DNA from: a virus
Taxonomy: Duplodnaviria > Caudoviricetes
DNA length: 64,000 nucleotides
Strand: one strand, 5' to 3'
Virus record (IMG/VR): IMGVR_UViG_3300028025_001913
Location: 605-64,604 of that record
The first letter of the stretch is position 1. The number at the start of each line of letters is the position of its first letter. The translations under genes and the position numbers were made by a program. The notes under the pieces are model-generated. The model was not told where the DNA came from. It worked only from the letters and a program-made list of their open reading frames with translations, and made no database searches. Of the stretch, positions 1-63,141 are shown one piece after another.

Positions 1-112
1 ATATCAACAGGGCTAGGTGCAACCAACCCCCATCGTTACAGACGTGATACAACGCAAAGCAAAAGCCCATCGTGAATACAATGGCGAACATCAAGGCTTC
101 GTGGTATTTCAT
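1..112 (-). CDS. partial small membrane protein (runs off window start)
   Basis: ATG at 112 after AAAGGAAG SD; manual translation MKYHEALMFAIVFTMGFCFALYHV..., hydrophobic. Confidence 0.55.
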   Translation of the reverse strand, partial: MKYHEALMFAIVFTMGFCFALYHVCNDGGWLHLALLI

Positions 113-126
113 TGTGCTTCCTTTCT

Positions 127-309
127 TTAGTTAAGATGTGCAGTTGCTAACGCAACGGCTAGGTTTGCCAATAGTGGCTTGATTACTTCGGGTGCATCTA
201 CATACTTCACATCATCTACATAATCCAAGGCTAGAATGATGTGTGCTAACTCCTCCGTTGTTACTTGAAGGTATAACTTCGGTGCTACGGCTTGTGGTTT
301 GTTGCGCAT
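127..309 (-). CDS. hypothetical early protein
   Basis: ORF 127..324; ATG 309 preferred (AAAGGA SD just upstream). Confidence 0.65.
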   Translation of the reverse strand: MRNKPQAVAPKLYLQVTTEELAHIILALDYVDDVKYVDAPEVIKPLLANLAVALATAHLN

Positions 310-338
310 GATATTTCCTTTCATTGGTTGATTGTGTG

Positions 339-355
339 GTGCAGAAAACCTGCAC
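339..355. promoter_or_regulatory. GTGCAG-N5-CTGCAC inverted repeat, copy 1
   Basis: GTGCAG AAAAC CTGCAC; one of five copies. Confidence 0.75.
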
Positions 356-419
356 TTGACAGAAAAGCGAACAGCGTTGAAGCCTCGCTCTCTGTCTTGT
401 TGTACAACGTGTTGTCAAA

Positions 420-845
420 TTACTTGGCAAATGCCATCGCAACAGCCTTAAGCACTTGGGCTTTCGTCATGCCCCATGCCTTGATTGCTTTAGCCTTCTT
501 TTCCACAACATCTACTTGCTTAGACGTTGTGCTACTCGTTGTGCTACTCGTAGGAAACATAGTGCGTAGCATCTCTCTAGCGTTATTCTGCGCCTTGCCT
601 ACTCTGCTAAAGCCAAGTGAGCCTTTGTAGATGCCCTTGGTAATCTTGATAGGCTTAACACCACCTTGCTTGATGCCAACAAGTTTTGCAACCTTACTGC
701 GTATATCAAGTTGTGTCTGTACGTCTGCCTTGTTGTACACAGGTATGAGTTTGCTCATTGCGTCTTGCAACTCGATACCCTTTGCAATGTACTGCTCTAA
801 CTTAGTGCAGAAAGTCTGCACCACAACTTTTTGATTCTGATTCAT
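420..845 (-). CDS. first early gene, basic hypothetical protein
   Basis: 141-aa ORF with AAGGAG SD, directly downstream of the leader terminator. Confidence 0.8.
   Translation of the reverse strand: MNQNQKVVVQTFCTKLEQYIAKGIELQDAMSKLIPVYNKADVQTQLDIRSKVAKLVGIKQGGVKPIKITKGIYKGSLGFSRVGKAQNNAREMLRTMFPTSSTTSSTTSKQVDVVEKKAKAIKAWGMTKAQVLKAVAMAFAK
805..821. promoter_or_regulatory. GTGCAG-N5-CTGCAC inverted repeat, copy 2 (intragenic)
   Basis: GTGCAG AAAGT CTGCAC. Confidence 0.7.
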
Positions 846-863
846 AATGCTCTCCTTAAAAAC

Positions 864-887
864 AAAAAGCCGAGCAAGTGGCTCGGC
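864..887 (-). terminator. intrinsic terminator/attenuator in early leader
   Basis: minus strand GCCGAGC-CACTT-GCTCGGC-TTTTT, between the promoter and the first early gene. Confidence 0.75.
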
Positions 888-926
888 AACACGTCGGCTG
901 ATGTGTGCTTCTCAACCGATAACTCT

Positions 927-935
927 ATTATACCA
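927..935 (-). promoter_or_regulatory. extended -10 promoter for early leader
   Basis: minus strand TGGTATAAT = TGn-TATAAT consensus. Confidence 0.65.
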
Positions 936-1114
936 AATGGGGATTCCTGACTAGGCTATATTGGATACCTGAAACCCCACGGGGTGGGTATAGACCTGTT
1001 TTGTGTGTGCCGTAGCGTAGACAGTACAACACTGTTCCTGACCCGCAAATTTAAAAAATGTCAAATTTTGTAAAAAAATAGCAGACTCATGTCAAACTTT
1101 ATACACTTCCACCC

Positions 1115-1142
1115 AAAAAAAGTCCCCGGGGTTGCCGGGGAC
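1115..1142 (-). terminator. intrinsic terminator
   Basis: minus strand GTCCCCGG-CAACC-CCGGGGAC followed by T7. Confidence 0.8.
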
Positions 1143-1197
1143 AATCAATCTAAATCAAGGAACACACCAACCAAACGAAGGAGAAAAGCCAGTGTTG
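1115..1197 (-). ncRNA. putative ~80-nt sRNA with two anti-SD segments
   Basis: TATAAT at 1208-1203 (no good -35), U-rich body with UCUCCUU and UUCCUU, strong terminator. Confidence 0.5.
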
Positions 1198-1228
1198 CAA
1201 TTATTATATAACAAATCTAAAAAATGCG

Positions 1229-1237
1229 TGATACAAT
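1229..1237 (+). promoter_or_regulatory. extended -10 promoter for late operon
   Basis: TGATACAAT upstream of the GGAGG SD of terS. Confidence 0.45.
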
Positions 1238-1280
1238 AAAATTTAATCGTGCCCCCCACGCTACCAAGGAGGACTTGAAT

Positions 1281-1859
1281 TTGTTTTTGGAACACCTAGT
1301 AAATCAGAATGCCGCAGATTTTGTACCAGAACTAGTTTCTGGCGAGGACTTCGTTTCCCTAGATAACCTAAACGCTTCTCAAACCCTCAACGCCCAGCTA
1401 AAGACAAGTGATTGGTTAAAGAGCCTGTCTGAAGATGATGACGATATACTTAATGATGCTCAAGAAAAAAGTGCCACCGACGCATTTAACGCTTTAGTCA
1501 CAAACAGCCCCGACGCAAAAAACAAAGTACTAGCCCTAGAAGTGCCGGAAGAGATTCGGTCTATTGTGGGAATGGTGACGGCTTATCAGTGGAAGTTTGT
1601 CGAGCAAGCGCAAGAATTGCGGAGCATGGCGGTGACTAAAATAGTTAAAGATACGGACCACCCAGACGCACGGATTCGGCTAAAAGCCTTGGAGATGCTG
1701 GGTAAAGTTACTGAGGTAGCCCTGTTTACAGAACGGGTACAAGTTAAGACTGAGGACATAAGCGACGAAGAGCTAGAAAAGCGTATTAAGGAAAAGCTTG
1801 GGCGTTACATGGGCAAGGCAGACGTAGTGGATGTTACGGCGAGCGAAGTAGATGATTGA
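1281..1859 (+). CDS. terS: terminase small subunit (putative)
   Basis: immediately upstream of TerL; RLKALEMLGK motif; in-frame TTG 1281 follows AAGGAGG. Confidence 0.7.
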   Translation: MFLEHLVNQNAADFVPELVSGEDFVSLDNLNASQTLNAQLKTSDWLKSLSEDDDDILNDAQEKSATDAFNALVTNSPDAKNKVLALEVPEEIRSIVGMVTAYQWKFVEQAQELRSMAVTKIVKDTDHPDARIRLKALEMLGKVTEVALFTERVQVKTEDISDEELEKRIKEKLGRYMGKADVVDVTASEVDD

Positions 1860-3384
1860 TATTCTGTCTCCTCAAGAAGCGATGGCTGCTCAACGGGCGA
1901 TGGCCCACATGACGAAATTTGAGAAGCTAGCGTTTTTAGAAAATTTAGAGCAGAAAGAAAACAGGGCGCAGCTTAAAAAAGCTAAAAACGACCCGATTGA
2001 GTTTGCTAAACGGATATACCCCGGGTTCAAAGTGGGACCCCATCATAGGAAACTAGCTAAAATATTTCAAGACGTAGTTGACGGGAACAAAAAACGGGTG
2101 ATTATTAATATTGCGCCTCGTATGGGTAAGTCTGAGTTCAGCTCTTATCTGTTCCCTGCTTATTTTCTAGGTAATTACCCTGAGAAAAAGATTATTATGG
2201 GCACCCACACTGCGGGGCTATCAGAAGATTTCGGTCGGCGAGTCCGGAATCTGATTGAAAGCGAGGAATACCATGACTTATTTCCAGAAACTGTGGTTGC
2301 GGATGACCAAAAAGCAGCGGGTAAGTGGTCGACCGGCGCTGGTGGACAGTATTATGCTGCTGGTGTTGGCGGTGCTCTTGCAGGTAGGGGTGCTGATTTG
2401 TTTGTTATTGATGACCCACATTCTGAGCAAGATGTAAAGTCTAATTCACGTCTAGCGTTTGATACAGCTTGGTCTTGGTTTCAGACCGGACCACTACAAC
2501 GGCTTATGCCGGGTGGGGCGATTATCGTGATAATGACCAGATGGTCGTTGCTAGACTTGACAGGGCGCTTACTGGACTACCAGATTAAGAATCCGAACAC
2601 AATTCCGTGGGAGTTGGTTGAGTTACCAGCCATATTGCACGAAGATACGGATAAAGAGAAGTCGCTTTGGCCTGAGCAGTGGCCCCTTGAGGCGCTAAAG
2701 AACACTAAAGCCAGTATTGACCCAAGATATTGGAACGCCCAGTATATGCAGAACCCCACATCCGACATGTCGGCAGTTATTGGGCGTAAAGATTGGAAAA
2801 TATGGGAGCAAGATGACCCACCTACAGTAGATTACATTATCCAGTCTTGGGATACGGCGTTTGAAACTAGTAATACAGCTGACTACTCCGCATGTACCAC
2901 ATGGGGGGTTTGGTATAACAACGAGGACAAGGGTAGCCCTAACTTAATACTGCTAGATGCGTTTAAAGACAGGATGACATTCCCAGAATTAAAGGCTACG
3001 GCGCTAAAACACTATAAAGAATGGAACCCCGATGCGTTTATAGTTGAGAAAAAAGCGGCGGGGGCACCACTAATTCAAGAACTGCGGCGGGTGGGCATTC
3101 CTGTACAAGAATTCTCCCCAAGCCGAGGTAACGACAAAATGGTCAGGCTTAACGCTGTAGCAGATTTATTTACCAGCGGTAAAGTATGGGCACCAGATAC
3201 AAGGTGGGCTAGAGAAGTAGTAGAAGAAGTGGCTAGTTTTCCTGTAGGCGAGAACGACGACTATGTGGATACGGTGTCCCAAGCACTATTGCGGTATAGA
3301 CAGGGTGGGTTTATTAGCCTTGACTCAGATGAAAAAGACGACGACCTCTTGTACAAGTACCGCCGTAAAGCGGCTTACTATTAA
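1852..3384 (+). CDS. terL: terminase large subunit
   Basis: Walker A APRMGKS, Walker B FVIDDPH, nuclease motifs QSWDTA and DDYVD. Confidence 0.95.
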   Translation: MIDILSPQEAMAAQRAMAHMTKFEKLAFLENLEQKENRAQLKKAKNDPIEFAKRIYPGFKVGPHHRKLAKIFQDVVDGNKKRVIINIAPRMGKSEFSSYLFPAYFLGNYPEKKIIMGTHTAGLSEDFGRRVRNLIESEEYHDLFPETVVADDQKAAGKWSTGAGGQYYAAGVGGALAGRGADLFVIDDPHSEQDVKSNSRLAFDTAWSWFQTGPLQRLMPGGAIIVIMTRWSLLDLTGRLLDYQIKNPNTIPWELVELPAILHEDTDKEKSLWPEQWPLEALKNTKASIDPRYWNAQYMQNPTSDMSAVIGRKDWKIWEQDDPPTVDYIIQSWDTAFETSNTADYSACTTWGVWYNNEDKGSPNLILLDAFKDRMTFPELKATALKHYKEWNPDAFIVEKKAAGAPLIQELRRVGIPVQEFSPSRGNDKMVRLNAVADLFTSGKVWAPDTRWAREVVEEVASFPVGENDDYVDTVSQALLRYRQGGFISLDSDEKDDDLLYKYRRKAAYY

Positions 3385-3391
3385 GGAAAAT

Positions 3392-3676
3392 ATGACTACG
3401 CAGAAATACATGGGCAAAGGAGTTTTGTTAGAAAGATTAACAGAACAGATGCGTACTCAGAAAAATCCACCTAGTGACCCGGAAGCAGCGGCACGGGCAG
3501 TGTTAATATCAAGGGGTCATATGAAAGAAGATGGCTCATTTACAGAAGGCGGTGAGGTGCGTAATAATATGACTGCCGAAGAGCGAGCTAAAGATAGAGC
3601 GGCTAAACGTACGGGTAAACCGGCTAATGCGTTTAATTACAACCCAAAAACAAACATGGTTTTAAGGAAAAGATAA
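3392..3676 (+). CDS. hypothetical protein
   Basis: ATG 3392 after AAGGA; stop overlaps portal start. Confidence 0.7.
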   Translation: MTTQKYMGKGVLLERLTEQMRTQKNPPSDPEAAARAVLISRGHMKEDGSFTEGGEVRNNMTAEERAKDRAAKRTGKPANAFNYNPKTNMVLRKR

Positions 3677-6132
3677 TGAGCATAGAAAAAAGTTTATACG
3701 AAGCCCCACAAGGGTTAAGCGCTTTAGCCGAAGAAGAACCGGATATTGAGATTGAAATTGAAGACCCTGAGTCAGTAAATATTAAAATGGGGGATGTCGA
3801 GATAGAGATTGACCCCGACGCAGAAGACGAAGAAAACTTTAACCAAAACCTAGTTGAGGTAATGGACGCTGGGGACTTGCAGTTACTTGCAGGAGAATTG
3901 ACAGAAGACATTGACAACGACCTTGCATCCCGTAAAGACTGGGAGAAAATGTATAAGGACGGGATTACGCTTCTTGGTTTAAAGTTTGAAGAACGCACGG
4001 AACCTTGGAGTGGGGCATGTGGTGTATTCCATCCCATGATTACCGAAGCCGTTGTGCGGTTTCAGTCCGACACCATTATGGAGACGTTTCCAGCCAAAGG
4101 ACCCGCAAGAACGCAGATTATCGGGAAAGAGACTCCTGAAAAGAAAGAAGCGGCTATTCGTGTACAAGATGACATGAACTATCAGCTTACTGAAAAGATG
4201 CCTGAGTACAGACTTGAGCATGAAAAGATGCTGTGGAACTTGCCAAGTGCGGGCTCTGCTTTTAAAAAGGTGTATTTTGACCCAAGTTTAGATAGGCAAG
4301 TAGCGGTATTTATACCCGCAGAAGACGTAATTTTGCCGTATGGGGCTAGTGATATTGAGACTTGTTCACGGATTACGCACAGAATGCGTAAGAATAAGAA
4401 CGAATTGATTAAGTTAATGAACGCTGGGTTCTACGCAGAAACCGACTTAGAAGATGAGCCAGATACATTTTTAAACGAAATTCAGCAGAAAAAAGACAAA
4501 GAAACGGGTTTTTCAGCTTCTTTTGACGACCGCTATGAGTTATATGAAATTCATGCCGATTTAGATTTGCCGGGGTTTGAGGATGTAGATGAAGACGGCG
4601 AACCAACAGGTATTGCGTTACCGTATGTAGTAACAATGCTACGTGGCACCGAAGAAATTATGGCTATTCGCCGTAACTGGAATGAAGACGATGAGCTAAA
4701 ACTTAAAAGGCAACATTTTGTCCATTACCAGTACATTCCGGGATATGGTTCGTATGGCTTTGGGCTATTTCATTTAATAGGTGGATACGCTAAGAGTGCT
4801 ACCAGTATTATGCGCCAATTGGTGGACGCCGGAACCTTATCAAACCTACCCGGCGGGCTTAAAGCTAGGGGCTTACGAATTAAGGGCGATGATACGCCAA
4901 TAGCTCCGGGAGAGTTCCGTGATGTGGACTTAGGCTCTGGTAATATAAGAGATAACATATTACCTTTACCTTATAAAGAACCGTCAGTAGTTTTATCTGG
5001 GTTAATGGATAAGATTGTTGAAGAGGGACGCAGATTTGCCGCTACTTCAGATATGAAGGTTGCGGACATGTCAAATCAAGCGCCAGTGGGTACTACTCTG
5101 GCCATTTTGGAGCGAACTCTCAAGGTAATGTCCGCTGTTCAGGCCCGTGTGCACTACACAATGAAGCAGGAATTGCAGTTATTAGCTGCAATTATTAGGG
5201 ATTACACAGACCCAGATTACACATACGAGCCAGAAGAAGGTCGGGCAAGTGCTAAGAAATCTGACTACAGCATGGTCGAAGTTATTCCTGTTAGTGACCC
5301 TAATGCTGCTACGCTTTCACAAAGAGTTGTACAGTACCAAGCGGTTATTCAGTTGGCACAGATGGCACCACAGATTTATAACCTGCCGGTGCTACATAGA
5401 CAGATGCTAGACGTCCTTGGTATTAAGCATGCAGATAAGCTTGTGCCATTGGAAGAAGATCAGAAACCAACTGACCCAGTAACAGAGAACATGAATGCGC
5501 TTAAGGGTAAACCCTTAAAAGCGTTTATTTACCAAGACCATGAATCACACATTAAGGTTCACCAGTCTGCTATGACGGACCCTATCGTACAGCAACTCAT
5601 TGGGCAGAATCCTCAAGCTCCTGTAATTATGGCGGCTATGCAGTCGCACATAGCTGAACACGTTGGGTATGCATACAGACAGAAGATTGAGTTGGCTCTC
5701 GGTGTTGCGTTGCCAAACCCAGAAGATGAAATGCCGGAAGACATGGAAAAAGAAATCAGTCGACTTATGGCTGAAGCTGCTCCGCAAGTCCTTGCGCAGA
5801 GTAAAGCAATGGTTGCGCAACAGCAAGCACAGCAGAATGCACAAGACCCGATACTACAGTTGCAGATGCAAGAGTTGCAGATTAAACAAAAAGAAGTTGA
5901 ATTAAAAGAGAAGAAAGTTATGGCAGACGCAGCGGCTAAAGCTGACGAGCTTGAGATTCAGAAACAGAAAATTGAGTCAACAGAAAAAATAGCTGGTATG
6001 AATGCGACGCTAAAAGATTTACAGGCTAAGCAAGCGTTACAAGCTAGACAAGAAGAATCAGGAGCTAAGTTAGGTTTAGATTTAGCACATAAACGTGCGC
6101 TTTTACAACAACCTAAGAAAACGGAGAAATAA
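3676..6132 (+). CDS. portal protein
   Basis: 818 aa after TerL; GSAFKKVYFD and GSYGFGL motifs; Q-rich coiled-coil C-terminus (P22-like barrel). Confidence 0.88.
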   Translation: MSIEKSLYEAPQGLSALAEEEPDIEIEIEDPESVNIKMGDVEIEIDPDAEDEENFNQNLVEVMDAGDLQLLAGELTEDIDNDLASRKDWEKMYKDGITLLGLKFEERTEPWSGACGVFHPMITEAVVRFQSDTIMETFPAKGPARTQIIGKETPEKKEAAIRVQDDMNYQLTEKMPEYRLEHEKMLWNLPSAGSAFKKVYFDPSLDRQVAVFIPAEDVILPYGASDIETCSRITHRMRKNKNELIKLMNAGFYAETDLEDEPDTFLNEIQQKKDKETGFSASFDDRYELYEIHADLDLPGFEDVDEDGEPTGIALPYVVTMLRGTEEIMAIRRNWNEDDELKLKRQHFVHYQYIPGYGSYGFGLFHLIGGYAKSATSIMRQLVDAGTLSNLPGGLKARGLRIKGDDTPIAPGEFRDVDLGSGNIRDNILPLPYKEPSVVLSGLMDKIVEEGRRFAATSDMKVADMSNQAPVGTTLAILERTLKVMSAVQARVHYTMKQELQLLAAIIRDYTDPDYTYEPEEGRASAKKSDYSMVEVIPVSDPNAATLSQRVVQYQAVIQLAQMAPQIYNLPVLHRQMLDVLGIKHADKLVPLEEDQKPTDPVTENMNALKGKPLKAFIYQDHESHIKVHQSAMTDPIVQQLIGQNPQAPVIMAAMQSHIAEHVGYAYRQKIELALGVALPNPEDEMPEDMEKEISRLMAEAAPQVLAQSKAMVAQQQAQQNAQDPILQLQMQELQIKQKEVELKEKKVMADAAAKADELEIQKQKIESTEKIAGMNATLKDLQAKQALQARQEESGAKLGLDLAHKRALLQQPKKTEK

Positions 6133-12659: not shown

Positions 12660-13412
12660 ATGACCGTAGTTGCAAGCACCTCGTTTAACTTAGACCTAGC
12701 TGAAATGGTTGAGGAAGCCTTTGAGCGTTGTGGTTCACAGTTACGTACTGGTTATGACCTTAAGACTGCTAGGCGTAGTCTTAATTTGTTGTTTGCCGAT
12801 TGGGCTAACCGTGGTATCAACTTGTGGACAATTGAGCAAGGTCAGATTAACTTAGTTCAAGGCGTAAACACGTACGATTTACCTATTGACACAGTTGATT
12901 TGTTAGAACACGTTATCCGTACTAACGCAGGTAGCACCGCTAATCAAACAGACTTATCAATAACAAGTATATCTGTGTCTACCTACGCAACAATACCAAA
13001 CAAGTTAACACAATCTAGACCTATTCAAGTCTGGTTTAATCGTCAGTCCGGTGCTGATTATGCAGGTACGGCAACGTCTTCTCCTCCGCTTGGTATAGAT
13101 TATCCTAAGATAGTTGTTTGGCCTACTCCAGACCAAGGTGCTGTCGGTGACCCATATTACACGTTTGTATACTGGCGTATGCGTAGAATTCATGACGGCG
13201 GTAACGGCGTTAACACTATGGATATACCGTTTAGATTTATGCCTTGCTTGGTAGCAGGGCTTTCGTATTATTTGGCATTAAAAATTTCAGGGGCAGAGCA
13301 ACGTATTCCTTTGTTAAAACAACAGTACGATGAGGCTTGGGAACTAGCCGCTACTGAAGATAGGGATAAGTCAGCTATTCGTTTTGTTCCTCGACAGATG
13401 TACATTTATTAA
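12660..13412 (+). CDS. head-tail adaptor-like virion protein
   Basis: EEAFERCG, ARRSLNLL..WANRG, VWPTPD; gene position. Confidence 0.6.
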   Translation: MTVVASTSFNLDLAEMVEEAFERCGSQLRTGYDLKTARRSLNLLFADWANRGINLWTIEQGQINLVQGVNTYDLPIDTVDLLEHVIRTNAGSTANQTDLSITSISVSTYATIPNKLTQSRPIQVWFNRQSGADYAGTATSSPPLGIDYPKIVVWPTPDQGAVGDPYYTFVYWRMRRIHDGGNGVNTMDIPFRFMPCLVAGLSYYLALKISGAEQRIPLLKQQYDEAWELAATEDRDKSAIRFVPRQMYIY

Positions 13413-54845: not shown

Positions 54846-55718
54846 TTAAAAATTAAACTTAGACAGGATGTCATCGACGTCTGCCTTAACGCTATTACGT
54901 GTACCCATATCCTTGCGCAAGTCTTTGAGGTCTACGCCGTTAAGGGTTCTCTTTAGTGCGATGCGTGCTTCTTCTATTAGTGGGTCGTTGATTATATTCA
55001 AGGACTCTGCCAACTCACACAACTCATGCGCAGTATCTAGCAACGTGTAGTTGAACACTCTAGGCTTTACTTCCCCTGCAACAACATCAACACCTAGTCT
55101 GTCTGACATACGCTTGAGGTGGTCAACAACCTTGAACTTAAACGAACCGATAGCGTGTTCGACTCGCTCGTCAGCAAACTTAGATAGCTTAGCTTTCAAG
55201 TCCTCCTGTGCATCGTTACCTACGTCAACCCTAAAGTCACCCGATGATGGCACAGGCATGTAGTTGACGCTGAACCTAAAGCGATGCGCTATATCATCAG
55301 GTGCGGGGTAGTCGGTACGGTTAAACATATCACCTAGTGCCATAGCTTGTGCAGTAATTAAGGACGGATACACACTAACAAACTCAGTAACAAGCCCGAA
55401 GAACTTGTCCTCAGCTTCTTGTATCTTGCCATTAAACTCCATAAACTTAATGCTTGGCAATAAGCGAATACCCGAGTCACTCCACGGCAACGTGTTGTCG
55501 TACAGATAGCTTCGTGTCTCCGTCACGTACTGGTTGATGGTTTCTAACTCACTACGTCCTGCAAACAAGTTCTTGTTAACTCGAGCCGCACCTTTCTCGG
55601 ATGCGTTCTTGTTGCTAACAAGTTCATCGGTGGTAGACCTGTCTAGTTTCCTAGCAGTCCATTGTGATACGCTAAGTTCCACCAACATAGCGCATGTATC
55701 TATGTTATATCTTGCCAT
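54846..55718 (-). CDS. DUF3150-like protein
   Basis: WTARKLD, TLPWSDSGIRLLP, LGDMFN..DYP; lies after the AAA/vWA pair. Confidence 0.6.
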   Translation of the reverse strand: MARYNIDTCAMLVELSVSQWTARKLDRSTTDELVSNKNASEKGAARVNKNLFAGRSELETINQYVTETRSYLYDNTLPWSDSGIRLLPSIKFMEFNGKIQEAEDKFFGLVTEFVSVYPSLITAQAMALGDMFNRTDYPAPDDIAHRFRFSVNYMPVPSSGDFRVDVGNDAQEDLKAKLSKFADERVEHAIGSFKFKVVDHLKRMSDRLGVDVVAGEVKPRVFNYTLLDTAHELCELAESLNIINDPLIEEARIALKRTLNGVDLKDLRKDMGTRNSVKADVDDILSKFNF

Positions 55719-56110
55719 TATTTAATCCCTAGTTGTGAAAACAAATCTCCCAAATCATCTAGCTTCTCATGTCTAGTGATAAGTACCTTACCATCCTTCG
55801 TTGTAATCGAATGGCTACCAGTACCCCATGACTTACTAGCGTTGGATGATACTGAACGATAGACAGTAGCTAAATCAAACTTACCAACAGGTATCTCAAC
55901 TGTGGTGTTGACCTTGATGTTATCTATATACGGCTTAATGTGTTTAACAACTGCACCATGAGGATACAAAGCTTTGCGTCTCTTGATTTTTGTTACTACT
56001 TCTAAGTTACCTGTCTTGTTGCCATCTGAATCTATGATGGCGTACTGAAAGCCAACTGCGTCAAGTAATTTAACTGCGTTTATTAATACTCTTGTTTGTA
56101 TTGTGTTCAT
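55718..56110 (-). CDS. hypothetical DNA-binding-like protein
   Basis: 130-aa basic ORF. Confidence 0.65.
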   Translation of the reverse strand: MNTIQTRVLINAVKLLDAVGFQYAIIDSDGNKTGNLEVVTKIKRRKALYPHGAVVKHIKPYIDNIKVNTTVEIPVGKFDLATVYRSVSSNASKSWGTGSHSITTKDGKVLITRHEKLDDLGDLFSQLGIK

Positions 56111-56127
56111 AAATCTCTTTCGTTTGG

Positions 56128-57336
56128 TTAGTTTGAATAAATACGTACTGCCTTACCTTGTGGTGGTACGAAGTGGTCGTTGTCTACTACACCCCATAAC
56201 GCAGGCACTTCGACTACTGCGTTGTCACCATCAAGATACCCATCAGTCAACCATATGACACCTTTCGGTTGATACTTCTTCTCCCGAATGTATTGCACAA
56301 CGCACTCAGGAGACGTGCCACCCCCACCGCTAGGCTTGAGGAGTGACGCAATGTTTGCGAACTCATGTGGTTTGAAGTATTGCTCGCCACATACTGAGCT
56401 ATCCCACCATATCAAGCGGACACCATCAGGGTTTACGTTCTGTGCGATGCGTGCTATCTCACCGAACACAGTAGGATAGATACCCATCATTGAACCTGAC
56501 GTATCGCATGCCACAATCAACTCGCCTGTTGACTCCGAGAAGTGTGACGGCATGACAATGCCTAATGGTAGTAAGCGTTTGTTAGGTGGTGCAAAGCGAG
56601 AGTAGTCGTCGCCCTCACATAGCGCAGTAATCCACTCAGTCATATGCTCACGCCAGTTGGTGTCACGCTTCTGTGTTGCCCTGTCAAGCGGATTGTTTGC
56701 TGACTTGTTGCCTGCTATCTTGTCGGCAAGAAGCTTACCCTGACGTATAGCGTCGTCAATCTGTCTGCCTAACTCGTTGCCCTCTTGCTCGCTTAGCTTG
56801 TCACCGAACACGTGCTTGTCTAACGGCTCGCCACCCTCGCCACCACTCTGTAAGATATACGACTGAACAGGAACTTTTGTAGCGTTGCGTAGCAAGTCCT
56901 GTAACACCTCGATGAATGACCAACCCTTGTACTTGATGTTGTATAAAGGCTTAGGCTCAGTAGTGAACTCGATGAAGGTATGCGTTGGGTCAATCTCTTG
57001 TATCGTGCCGTTGACTACAAAGTCCATCGCAATACCTGTCAACTCAGGATGTTTCTTATCTACCTCAGCATAGATAACGCAATGGTGCAACGCCTTGTGC
57101 AACGCTTCATGTGCTACAACAAAGCGTAACTGCTTACGAGTAAGCGTGTTGACAAACTCATTGCTATAGATAACGTCACGTCCGTTGGTGCAAGCTGTAC
57201 CAACAGAGTCGTCAAACTTGACTGCACCTACATACACTACACCTGATAACCCTGCGAACAATGCGTTGTTGCTCAGGTCTACGTGAACGGCAACCACCTT
57301 ATCGTGTGCCGATAATTTCTCCCATGTCTTTGACAT
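56128..57336 (-). CDS. metallopeptidase-vWA protein (DUF2201-like)
   Basis: TACTNG, AHEALH, MIDAS DTSGS, GGGGT, LTDGY. Confidence 0.85.
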   Translation of the reverse strand: MSKTWEKLSAHDKVVAVHVDLSNNALFAGLSGVVYVGAVKFDDSVGTACTNGRDVIYSNEFVNTLTRKQLRFVVAHEALHKALHHCVIYAEVDKKHPELTGIAMDFVVNGTIQEIDPTHTFIEFTTEPKPLYNIKYKGWSFIEVLQDLLRNATKVPVQSYILQSGGEGGEPLDKHVFGDKLSEQEGNELGRQIDDAIRQGKLLADKIAGNKSANNPLDRATQKRDTNWREHMTEWITALCEGDDYSRFAPPNKRLLPLGIVMPSHFSESTGELIVACDTSGSMMGIYPTVFGEIARIAQNVNPDGVRLIWWDSSVCGEQYFKPHEFANIASLLKPSGGGGTSPECVVQYIREKKYQPKGVIWLTDGYLDGDNAVVEVPALWGVVDNDHFVPPQGKAVRIYSN

Positions 57337-60379: not shown

Positions 60380-60597
60380 TGTGGTATCTTTCCTAGTTTG
60401 ATTATTACGTCTTCGTCTTCAAATACAACCCTACCCCCTTCGTTGGTAACAGTTGCTTTCTTTAATGCTAGCTGGCATAACATGCCACCCAAACCAACGG
60501 CTACTTTCATAACCGTCCAGTATCTATAGTGGTAGTAAACGGCACAAGCCGTAGCCACCACACCCCATGCAATCAGGTATATCTCTGCAATACTCAT
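60376..60597 (-). CDS. small membrane protein
   Basis: hydrophobic N-terminus. Confidence 0.6.
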   Translation of the reverse strand: MSIAEIYLIAWGVVATACAVYYHYRYWTVMKVAVGLGGMLCQLALKKATVTNEGGRVVFEDEDVIIKLGKIPQ

Positions 60598-61619
60598 TTT
60601 GCTACTCCTTTCTTATCTTCTAACCAAGGGAATGACTCACGTGCTTTGGCAAAGTCTGACATCACACGCACGAACCAAGACTCATCTATGTAGTCGTCCT
60701 TGAGCAGATAAGTAATCTCGAAGAACGAGTCAAGCCCGAACTTGTTGACGAACTCCCCTGCCTGACGTCTACTCATGTTGCCTGCCTTCTCATACCCATC
60801 GAGACCTAACTCGACAAGCGCATCGTCTATATCTAACTCAGTATCTACGATGTCATCCACCCACTTGGTGTCGTCCCACTCAGAACCATAGCCATGCGTG
60901 TGGTATGGATAGTTGTTATAGTTGCCGTATGTGCTATACGAACTGCCTGCCATAGGTGCTGTGTATGTATACGGCTCAGGCTCAGCGTTGACTTGGCTAC
61001 GTGCTAGCTTCATGTCAAGCATGTCCTTTGCCTTGGTAGTCGTCAGGGTAGGTGCTGACCATGCGTAGGTGTTGGACATCCAACGTCCACCCCAATACAC
61101 ACCTTGACTCTGATTGACCACAGTCTTGCGCCCTAGGTTATCCATGATGACGAAGCGATTGTTGCCGATGTGACCACTGATAAGATACTCGAACGATGTG
61201 GTAAACGCATAGTTAGGATTCTTGGCAAGCATAGGGCGCAGTATGTCATTGATGTAGTGCCATGTATCTGATTTGGTTACATCTGCCTTGTTGCCTGTGC
61301 TGAGCACACCATTGTGCATCATCCACATATCAACGCCATGCTCTTCCTTGTTGAGTATCTCGTATGGGTGGCAGTTGAGCATATCAATATCACCATGCGT
61401 CTTCATGCGCAAGTGAAAGGCACAGTCCTTGCCGTCGATGTGCTTGGTGTAGAACTCGTACAACTCTGCATCAGTCTTGGGCAATGCCTTCTCTACATAC
61501 AGCGTGCCATCTACTGCATACATAACACCGATACCATCAGCGTTGTAGTCATAGAAGTCTGACAACCAATGCTCAGGTAGTGACGGGGATGATACGGATT
61601 GGGTAACTAATAAACACAT
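60594..61619 (-). CDS. class II (Ntn) glutamine amidotransferase
   Basis: N-terminal MC nucleophile, NADGIG, HLRMKTHG, NCHPY, HNG, SDT. Confidence 0.85.
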   Translation of the reverse strand: MCLLVTQSVSSPSLPEHWLSDFYDYNADGIGVMYAVDGTLYVEKALPKTDAELYEFYTKHIDGKDCAFHLRMKTHGDIDMLNCHPYEILNKEEHGVDMWMMHNGVLSTGNKADVTKSDTWHYINDILRPMLAKNPNYAFTTSFEYLISGHIGNNRFVIMDNLGRKTVVNQSQGVYWGGRWMSNTYAWSAPTLTTTKAKDMLDMKLARSQVNAEPEPYTYTAPMAGSSYSTYGNYNNYPYHTHGYGSEWDDTKWVDDIVDTELDIDDALVELGLDGYEKAGNMSRRQAGEFVNKFGLDSFFEITYLLKDDYIDESWFVRVMSDFAKARESFPWLEDKKGVAK

Positions 61620-61649
61620 ATGTAATTCTCCTTGATTTGATTGGGTTGG

Positions 61650-63119: not shown

Positions 63120-63141
63120 AACTTTTCCTCGTTTGATTGAT

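Follow-up and report, generated by a model that had tools for sequence, protein, structure and literature searches.

We analysed a 64,000-nucleotide (nt) stretch of tailed-phage DNA (the window), which comprises bases 605-64604 of the single 64,604-bp virus record IMGVR_UViG_3300028025_001913. Beside the gene for the small terminase (terS) it contains a short minus-strand element that, judged from its sequence and that of its relatives, is a discrete small-RNA (sRNA) gene with a promoter and a terminator of its own; it is neither a leader nor an antisense RNA of terS. We are highly confident that this RNA gene is real. It belongs to what we judge to be a genuine and previously uncatalogued family of phage sRNAs, in which a hairpin loop carries an anti-Shine-Dalgarno (anti-SD) sequence. 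The loop is preferentially complementary to the ribosome-binding sites (RBSs) of one arm of the phage genome, the minus-strand, non-structural arm. We call this arm early and the structural arm late, labels that are assumed from gene content and strand. Our leading explanation, held at about even odds, is that the RNA acts in trans, with its loop occluding the RBSs of a subset of early mRNAs.

In the mechanism that we propose, a -10-type promoter (1208-1203) would drive synthesis of a minus-strand RNA of about 80 nt (from about 1196 to 1116), which would end at a strong intrinsic terminator. A covarying hairpin would present the loop, and a single-stranded linker with a second motif, UUCCUU, would separate it from the terminator hairpin and U-tail. 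The loop would base-pair in trans with the SD region and the 4-7 nt upstream of it in a subset of early-arm mRNAs, whose leaders have (C)AACGA(A)(A)GGA in common. Such pairing, with whatever chaperone might take part, would occlude the RBS and lead to lower translation; repression is the direction of control that we presume.

Organization of the sRNA cassette

The element is part of a divergent region of 378 nt (846-1223), flanked by terS and by the first minus-strand gene, which starts at 845. All of its features are on the minus strand. The predicted -10 box, TATAAT (1203-1208), has a T-rich stretch upstream. The first two positions of this hexamer are invariant in 42/42 aligned relatives, its last T is at least 90% conserved, and it stands at a fixed distance from the first hairpin across the alignment. 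A covariance model (R1, below) and the fold energy support a predicted CU-rich RNA of about 76-82 nt (1116-1196). We infer that its 5' end is near 1196, 7 nt past the -10 box, and that its 3' end falls within the U-run of the terminator.

Hairpin 1 (1164-1195) is predicted by both the minimum-free-energy and the centroid structure, and consists of 1187-1195 paired with 1164-1172, G-U pairs included. Its conserved 14-nt loop (1173-1186) displays CUCCUUCGUUU, in which CUCCUU at 1183-1178 is followed by CGUUU. The single-stranded linker (1143-1163) has UUCCUU at 1162-1157 and leads into the intrinsic terminator (1115-1142), which is made of a stem at 1142-1122 (8 pairs, 7 of them G-C, and a 5-nt loop) and a run of seven U at 1121-1115. 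A preliminary description of this DNA had pointed to the TATAAT, to a CU/GU-rich stretch and to a strong terminator, all of which are present as described; what it called modules B and A are the loop and the linker, respectively. Both CU motifs are predicted to be accessible. In the window, the probability of being unpaired is 0.88 for CUCCUU in the loop and 0.92 for UUCCUU in the linker, and for the CU motifs in six genomes (that of the window and five complete relatives) it ranges from 0.82 to 0.97.

The minus-strand RNA folds with an energy of -24.9 kcal/mol (z -2.61), which was reached by 3/200 shuffled sequences. Folding of the opposite strand did not form hairpin 1, only the minus strand has a U-run after the terminator, and among 608 paired-column cells in aligned relatives there are 48 G-U cells versus 21 A-C or C-A cells. 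Because the U-run, the G-U excess and hairpin 1 are confined to that strand, we take the minus strand to be the RNA strand. No conserved open reading frame (ORF) was found on either strand of the element.

The cassette is also separable from its surroundings. In 3/64 copies (L040, which is the complete genome G005, and L053 and L054) the whole set of promoter, RNA and terminator has been inverted together; there the cassette points the same way as terS and lies between the same neighbours. In G005 these neighbours are the same conserved upstream block and terS, and the putative promoter reads TTGACA-18-TAAGCT. Inversion of the entire cassette marks it as an independent gene and not a leader. 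Just upstream of it in L053 (about 3040-3115, plus strand), and also in L054, we noticed by eye a tRNA-like sequence ending in CCA. In three other loci (L048, L023 and L046) the sRNA is preceded by two or three tandem copies of CTTTACAAT; these resemble stacked -10 boxes, which suggests selection for strong transcription of the sRNA.

Conservation and covariation in related phages

A search of IMG/VR with the terS product returned 71 loci, 57-98% identical. By eye, the same layout diverges from terS in nearly all loci that extend upstream of it: a TATAAT, TATACT or TACAAT box, then a hairpin, in many cases another CU motif, and a strong terminator. The sequence of the hairpin stem varies between loci while its pairing is kept. 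The loop reads (C)UUUU(A/C)CUCCUU(U)CGUU(U)G, with CUCCUU(U)CGUU(U)G as a near-invariant core across the family. Of the 45 distinct family members, 43 have a CU motif in the loop. The linker carries a second one in 28/45, the window included, and a whole subfamily is without it.

Hairpin 1 covaries in these relatives. On a MAFFT alignment of 42 distinct sequences (A2), RNAalifold recovered both hairpin 1 and the terminator unprompted. In A2, 88.0% of the 608 cells are paired, versus 38-53% in controls whose partners were slid by 1-3 columns; covariation scores 0.452, versus at most 0.104; and 0/500 column shuffles reached the observed paired share or score. In a model-fitted alignment, which leans towards the structure, 94.5% of the cells are paired and 8/8 pairs of hairpin 1 have changed on both sides. 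Pairing in the terminator stem is likewise kept by compensatory changes, one of its pairs being G-C in 23/45 and A-U in 20/45 distinct sequences.

Model R1 finds one copy of the element in the window (1116-1219, 80.6 bits, E 6.8e-14) and exactly one in each of the loci whose flank upstream of terS is 188 nt or longer (63/63). In the remaining 8 of the 71 loci this flank is under 50 nt, too short to hold the element. Five loci in which the motif is absent and which were left out of the alignment behind R1 (L040, L042, L044, L053 and L054) were recovered by it, with E values from 3.7e-5 to 3.1e-3. Each of the five complete relatives (64.5-68.5 kb) has one copy. A second match in L087 (11989-12128, 26.3 bits) was rejected as spurious; by eye, it is the reverse complement of a gene start and a neighbouring terminator.

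Two exact loop patterns occur in 18 and 17 IMG/VR contigs, of which 34 were already in the terS list and one was new, also beside terS. The element always adjoins terS, and the family is found in at least 65 contigs (the window, the 63 loci and L126). When only exact matches were sought, the two loop patterns had none (0) in the bacterial and archaeal genomes of 185,579 species. It follows from this absence that the RNA was not recently borrowed from a sequenced host. Among named phages, megablast with window positions 1-6000 found no near-identical genome. The closest named relatives by large terminase (TerL) are about 50% identical, and in three of these R1 had no match within 4 kb on either side of TerL.

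Complementarity of the loop to early ribosome-binding sites

We counted perfect complements between the loop of each of the six genomes and the start regions of that genome. Complements of at least 9 nt are found at 31/233 early and 2/284 late starts, and complements of at least 10 nt at 21/233 early and 1/284 late starts. For the latter length, loops in which the anti-SD core was kept and the flanks were shuffled gave 3.5 ± 2.3 early starts (maximum 12 in 1000 shuffles) and 0.64 late starts. On these counts the loop is preferentially complementary to early-arm RBSs in the window genome and in all five complete relatives taken together, as the preliminary description would lead one to expect. 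The part of the leaders that it faces can be written as ACGA{1,3}G[GA][AG]; this motif occurs within 15 nt upstream of the called start in 25 early genes and 1 late gene of the six genomes. Of the 15 best non-self sites in each genome, 34/90 are at early start regions.

The recurring predicted targets form one conserved block. A 290-aa DUF3150-like protein is a predicted target in 5/6 genomes, and the others in the block are genes for a VWA protein, an AAA ATPase and a 325-aa protein, together with the amidoligase-like and 341-aa genes described below. The longest complements are in G005, whose loop, UCCUUUCGUUUGU, has perfect complements of 13 to 16 nt at three early leaders and of 11 nt at a fourth. 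Three G005 early genes (loci L089-L090) share a near-identical leader of about 20 nt, TCTCACAA(A/C)(A/C)AACGAAAGGAA, which contains the full complement of the G005 sRNA loop and resembles a repeated leader cassette. Elsewhere in the family, loops of the GUUGUG type face ACAACGAAAGGA leaders. Such correspondences are suggestive of loop-leader co-evolution. Inclusion of the G/U-rich stem arm makes the window RNA pair more strongly with the leaders of every genome.

In the window genome we compared 85 called starts (39 early and 46 late). The seven genes singled out by the preliminary description (56110, 61619, 63119, 57336, 60379, 309 and 58460) are all in the top 12/85 for at least one of the two modules. 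Five of them, in the order 56110, 63119, 61619, 57336 and 60379, are ranked 3rd to 7th of 85 by cofolding, which charges for the opening of both RNAs. The predicted site for module B at the RBS of a gene for a 130-aa protein of unknown function (55718-56110) is at 56114-56129 on the minus strand, and the 15/16 match with 1169-1184 that had been noted for it is confirmed. This leader gives a duplex of -23.7 kcal/mol (rank 1/85) and a cofold gain of -17.9 (rank 3/85). At the amidoligase-like gene (ATG 63119; Pfam Amidoligase_2), the predicted site is at 63122-63138, minus strand; the duplex with the loop plus stem arm reaches -29.4 (rank 1), the cofold gain is -17.1 (rank 4/85), and the G005 orthologue has a 13-nt perfect complement to the G005 loop. 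The third predicted site (61623-61645, minus strand) is at the RBS of a gene for a 341-aa protein (60594-61619). This gene had been labelled GATase; no Pfam family was found for its product. Its leader forms duplexes of -23.2 kcal/mol with module B and -20.1 with module A and has a cofold gain of -16.6 (rank 5/85), and its G005 orthologue has a 15-nt perfect complement to the G005 loop.

Two kinds of shuffling were used to judge these values. In the first, the anti-SD core (CUCCUU) was kept and its flanks were shuffled 200 times. For module B at early starts, 0/200 shuffles reached the mean of the top three duplexes and 5/200 reached the single best, whereas at late starts module B was unremarkable, with 177-178/200 shuffles pairing as well. 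In the second, loop and linker were shuffled and the stems were kept. The observed mean cofold gain is -10.5 kcal/mol at the 39 early starts versus -6.1 at the 46 late starts (Mann-Whitney p 4e-6), and the gap of -4.4 between them exceeds that of 76/76 shuffles (mean -2.08 ± 0.65).

The preliminary description had proposed an anti-SD sRNA whose two modules both pair with early RBSs, and it fared differently in its parts. A discrete gene, an exposed anti-SD sequence and an early-biased loop, module B, which pairs better than its flank-shuffled versions, all stood. Module A (1146-1163) can indeed form the pairings that were described, 15 nt with one bulge at the 61619 leader and 13 nt with one bulge at the 57336 leader. 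These module A-specific targets, the GATase-like 61619 and the vWA gene 57336, did not survive, as they are at the level of chance in the flank shuffles and as module A outside its UUCCUU core is not conserved in relatives. What is left of the earlier idea is the loop alone and an early regulon defined by the leader motif.

Points against occlusion of early RBSs, and rival explanations

Several results weigh against the proposal that the RNA silences early genes through its loop. For module A at early starts, 97/200 flank shuffles reached the top-3 mean and 50/200 the best duplex. The absolute affinity for early starts is also modest, since the observed early mean was reached by 10/76 loop/linker shuffles and the top-5 mean by 9/76. 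Base composition accounts for about half of the early/late bias, because shuffled loops themselves favour early leaders by 2.1 kcal/mol. In the window genome, a complement of at least 10 nt is present at just 2/39 early starts, and the strongest non-self duplex (-27.7 kcal/mol) is at 13076-13105, minus strand, antisense to late genes and away from any start; this pairing is probably due to chance, unless antisense transcription occurs there. Gene 56110 has a homologue in just 1/5 complete relatives; it was rejected as a conserved target and cannot explain the conservation of the loop. The counts summed over six genomes are not independent, as three of these are close kin that share one loop sequence, and we saw no consistent advantage for a genome's own loop over foreign loops in pairing with its leaders. 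All gene calls and start codons come from a simple in-house caller. At the promoter, no -35 element is recognisable for the TATAAT, and a consensus promoter scan made no call there; it is the conservation of the hexamer in relatives that argues for its reality. The RNA run X1 (0.05 of sampled words) yielded contigs over coding sequence of terS, terL and portal, mostly less than 90% alike, and none over 201-1200, and so is uninformative on transcription either way and on habitat.

A real RNA could also be aimed at the host. Its anti-SD loop would then bind the RBSs of host mRNAs, be they specific ones or a large number, much as is proposed for the growth-inhibiting CU-rich sRNAs of Burkholderia, and aid host shut-off, and the matches to phage leaders would mirror only a shared RBS style. 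An almost invariant loop in phages whose TerS proteins are just 57-98% identical is what a conserved external target would produce, and the tests of own against foreign loops, with their lack of genome-specific matching, point the same way. So do a weak likeness, below threshold, to the bacterial families RF02278 and RF02837 and the reported attenuated growth of B. cenocepacia on overexpression of a CU-rich double-hairpin sRNA (PMC5688073). We nevertheless consider a host target unlikely, since by itself it does not predict that the CGUU(U)G extension of the loop should fit a leader motif present at 25 early starts and 1 late start of the phages, and since neither exact loop pattern has a match among the 185,579 species. 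Strict conservation of the loop would fit a protein- or ribosome-level ligand too, and the anti-SD hexamer is exposed in a U-rich context. The pyrimidine-rich loop, which presumably resembles the 3' tail of 16S rRNA, might imitate that tail or some other ligand and titrate a protein without any pairing to mRNA; candidates would be Hfq, ribosomal protein S1, and a nuclease or defence factor of the host that targets the 16S tail. We rate such a decoy as improbable: the analysis points to no protein partner, and the match of the loop to phage leaders beyond the anti-SD core, above that of flank-shuffled loops, is not required of a pure decoy.

The position of the element in a 378-nt divergent control region raises the question of whether it has any function in trans. 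It might be a promoter-proximal terminator or insulator that separates the divergent early and late units, or a short abortive leader comparable to the terminated late transcript of lambdoid phages, with the RNA as a by-product. Before the first early gene there are indeed another promoter-like box and another terminator-like hairpin, and the sRNA -10 box stands back-to-back with a -10-like box of terS, 20-23 nt away, an arrangement in which promoter competition alone could suffice. An insulator has no need, however, for a near-invariant loop of 14 to 20 nt held open by a covarying stem; the cassette keeps this loop when it is inverted to run in the same direction as terS; and the early genes have a separate conserved box, TGGTATAAT, downstream. 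These points make the insulator quite improbable in our view. It is very improbable that the signal resides in the other strand or at another level, whether as the RBS (AAGGAG, 1178-1183, plus strand) of a small upstream ORF with coupling to terS, as a cis-antisense RNA to the terS leader or as a pac site. In the window a GTG at 1192, 8 nt after AAGGAG, does open a frame of 15 codons, and the element is invariably beside terS. Across the family, though, a start codon lies 4-11 nt after the SD-like core in just 13/45 distinct members. The G-U excess, the U-run and the failure of the plus strand to form hairpin 1 favour a minus-strand RNA, and 3 loci have the element turned round with respect to terS. 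For cis-antisense in particular, a terS mRNA made from the TGaTACAAT box at 1229-1237 would begin only past the sRNA gene, and there would be no overlap.

Genome setting and neighbouring control sequences

The plus strand of the window, from about 1281 to 40936, carries packaging and structural genes, among them those for the small terminase, the large terminase (PHROG 38, E 1.4e-98), the portal and a 2615-aa LPD38 protein. The remaining genes are on the minus strand and have replication and accessory functions: a family-A DNA polymerase, an SNF2 helicase, a DUF927 primase-like protein, a PD-(D/E)XK nuclease, an amidoligase-like protein, an AAA ATPase and a VWA/DUF2201 protein, with a weak match to DUF3150 that is below the cutoff. 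There is no phage RNA polymerase among 20 proteins scanned, and host-type promoters are therefore expected.

The probable start of terS is TTG 1281, behind AAGGAGG, and the equivalent start is conserved in ten relatives. A start at ATG 1224, which would give the longest ORF, was rejected because the upstream frame is closed by stops in ten relatives, where the conserved start follows an AAGGAGG-type site. The TGaTACAAT box at 1229-1237 (plus strand) is 20-23 nt from the sRNA -10 box, and 10/10 relatives inspected have a -10-like hexamer in the same place; a divergent late promoter here is plausible. Since this box would start the terS mRNA past the sRNA gene, the sRNA would not be a cis-antisense RNA of the terS leader. 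The segment 1224-1280 (plus strand) is conserved at the nucleotide level and contains a small inverted repeat, CGTG...CACG (about 1250-1262), that is also found in relatives. This segment resembles a promoter and 5' leader for terS, placed back-to-back with the sRNA promoter, and the interlocked -10 boxes suggest competition or co-regulation between the two.

Another pair of promoter and terminator lies at 862-945 (minus strand), just before the first early gene. Relatives, the complete genomes G001 and G004 among them, have conserved its extended -10 box, TGGTATAAT (941-933, minus strand). Some 40 nt past this box, a hairpin (887-869) with a U-run immediately precedes the AAGGAG of the gene that starts at 845, and the pairing of this hairpin is kept through compensatory changes in L002-L005. 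The pair may represent another short RNA, or else a regulated attenuator of the early operon.

Within the intergenic region, conservation reaches most widely across distant relatives at 1015-1105 (by BLAST, for example, 92.7% identity over 55 nt to L045). This block has two copies of TTTGACAT on the minus strand; one arrangement is TTGACA (1096-1091) and, after 17 nt, TACAAA (1073-1068). In G005 the adjoining sRNA cassette is inverted, but the orientation of the block to terS is unchanged. It may be a promoter or operator region.

Implications of the sRNA family

The family is well delimited, covaries strongly, is absent from Rfam 15 at threshold, and comes with a concrete predicted regulon and seed. 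We found no prior description of the element in the literature on phage-encoded, CU-rich and anti-SD sRNAs, supplementary sRNA lists aside. According to a review, most characterised phage sRNAs are from prophages of enteric bacteria (PMC12197685), and the sRNAs of lytic or environmental phages have been little studied. If the loop does occlude early RBSs, the family would provide an RNA version of early-gene translational shut-off and a natural, extended anti-SD mimic with built-in target selectivity. If it is directed at the host instead, it would represent a compact tool for interference with translation in abundant aquatic phages. A bolder proposal, which is possible but in our judgement rather doubtful, is that an aquatic lineage of tailed phages silences its own early protein synthesis by RNA and not by protein. 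In that case the loop, an anti-SD mimic extended by 4-7 nt, would outcompete ribosomes at early leaders with (C)AACGA(A)(A)GGA, and the back-to-back -10 boxes would let the same 30 bp choose between silencer and packaging operon.

Comparison with known systems

No Rfam family matched the window at its gathering score. The closest likenesses, weak matches over the full length of the models in permissive searches, were to two families of CU-rich Burkholderia sRNAs. RF02278 (Betaproteobacteria toxic sRNA) aligned with 1115-1186 on the minus strand at 19.4 bits (E 0.18), short of its gathering score of 50, and its best score among 13 relatives searched was 29.9 bits, in L029, also below 50. RF02837 (anti-hemB) scored 13.2 bits in the window (E 2.2), and 29.2 (the best) and 27.8 bits in the relatives L042 and L015, all below its gathering score of 49.5. 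According to two reports, members of both families are short RNAs with a hairpin and a terminator and leave unpaired CU-rich stretches that are the reverse complement of RBSs, and overexpression of one, Burkholderia ncS27, attenuates growth (PMC5688073, PMC4603805).

The phage element shares with the double-hairpin RNAs of RF02278 (ncS03, ncS05, ncS27 and ncS62, of 57-92 nt) a hairpin followed by a terminator hairpin, and its two hairpins likewise leave CU-rich, RBS-complementary stretches unpaired. It differs from them in that the Burkholderia RNAs are chromosomal, with 3-5 copies per genome, whereas the phage element is a single copy beside terS; in the CGUU(U)G extension of its loop, which is specific to the phage family; and in its predicted targets, which are the phage's own genes. 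With anti-hemB/Burkholderia RNA 7 (ncS04) it has in common a CU-rich loop in the first hairpin, followed by a second hairpin and a terminator. Beyond the CU motif and the terminator there is no relation in sequence to anti-hemB, and the genomic setting is different. On paper, then, the element resembles the CU-rich sRNAs of Burkholderia, and from these sequence comparisons we conclude that it is not a member of them.

Among phage RNAs, the nearest parallel in mode of action would be c4 of P1 and P7. As summarised in a review, c4 is an sRNA whose complementary segments, probably in loops, bind around the RBS of the ant mRNA and block its translation (PMC12197685). The element described here is also phage-encoded and is also predicted to pair around the RBSs of phage mRNAs. 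Unlike it, c4 serves one operon in temperate-phage immunity and is processed from a longer transcript, whereas our element has several dispersed leaders as predicted targets and a promoter and terminator of its own. Window positions 800-1300 gave 8 Rfam matches up to E = 10, none of them to the C4 family. The NmsR sRNAs of Neisseria meningitidis, by their description, are set apart as bacterial tandem genes with metabolic targets.

The proposed outcome, though not the means, has a counterpart in phage T4. The T4 repressor RegA turns off the translation of many early mRNAs by binding to their initiation regions. The likeness is one of analogy only, in that the same translational shut-off of early genes is proposed for both; RegA is a protein, and the effector proposed here is an RNA that would act by base pairing.

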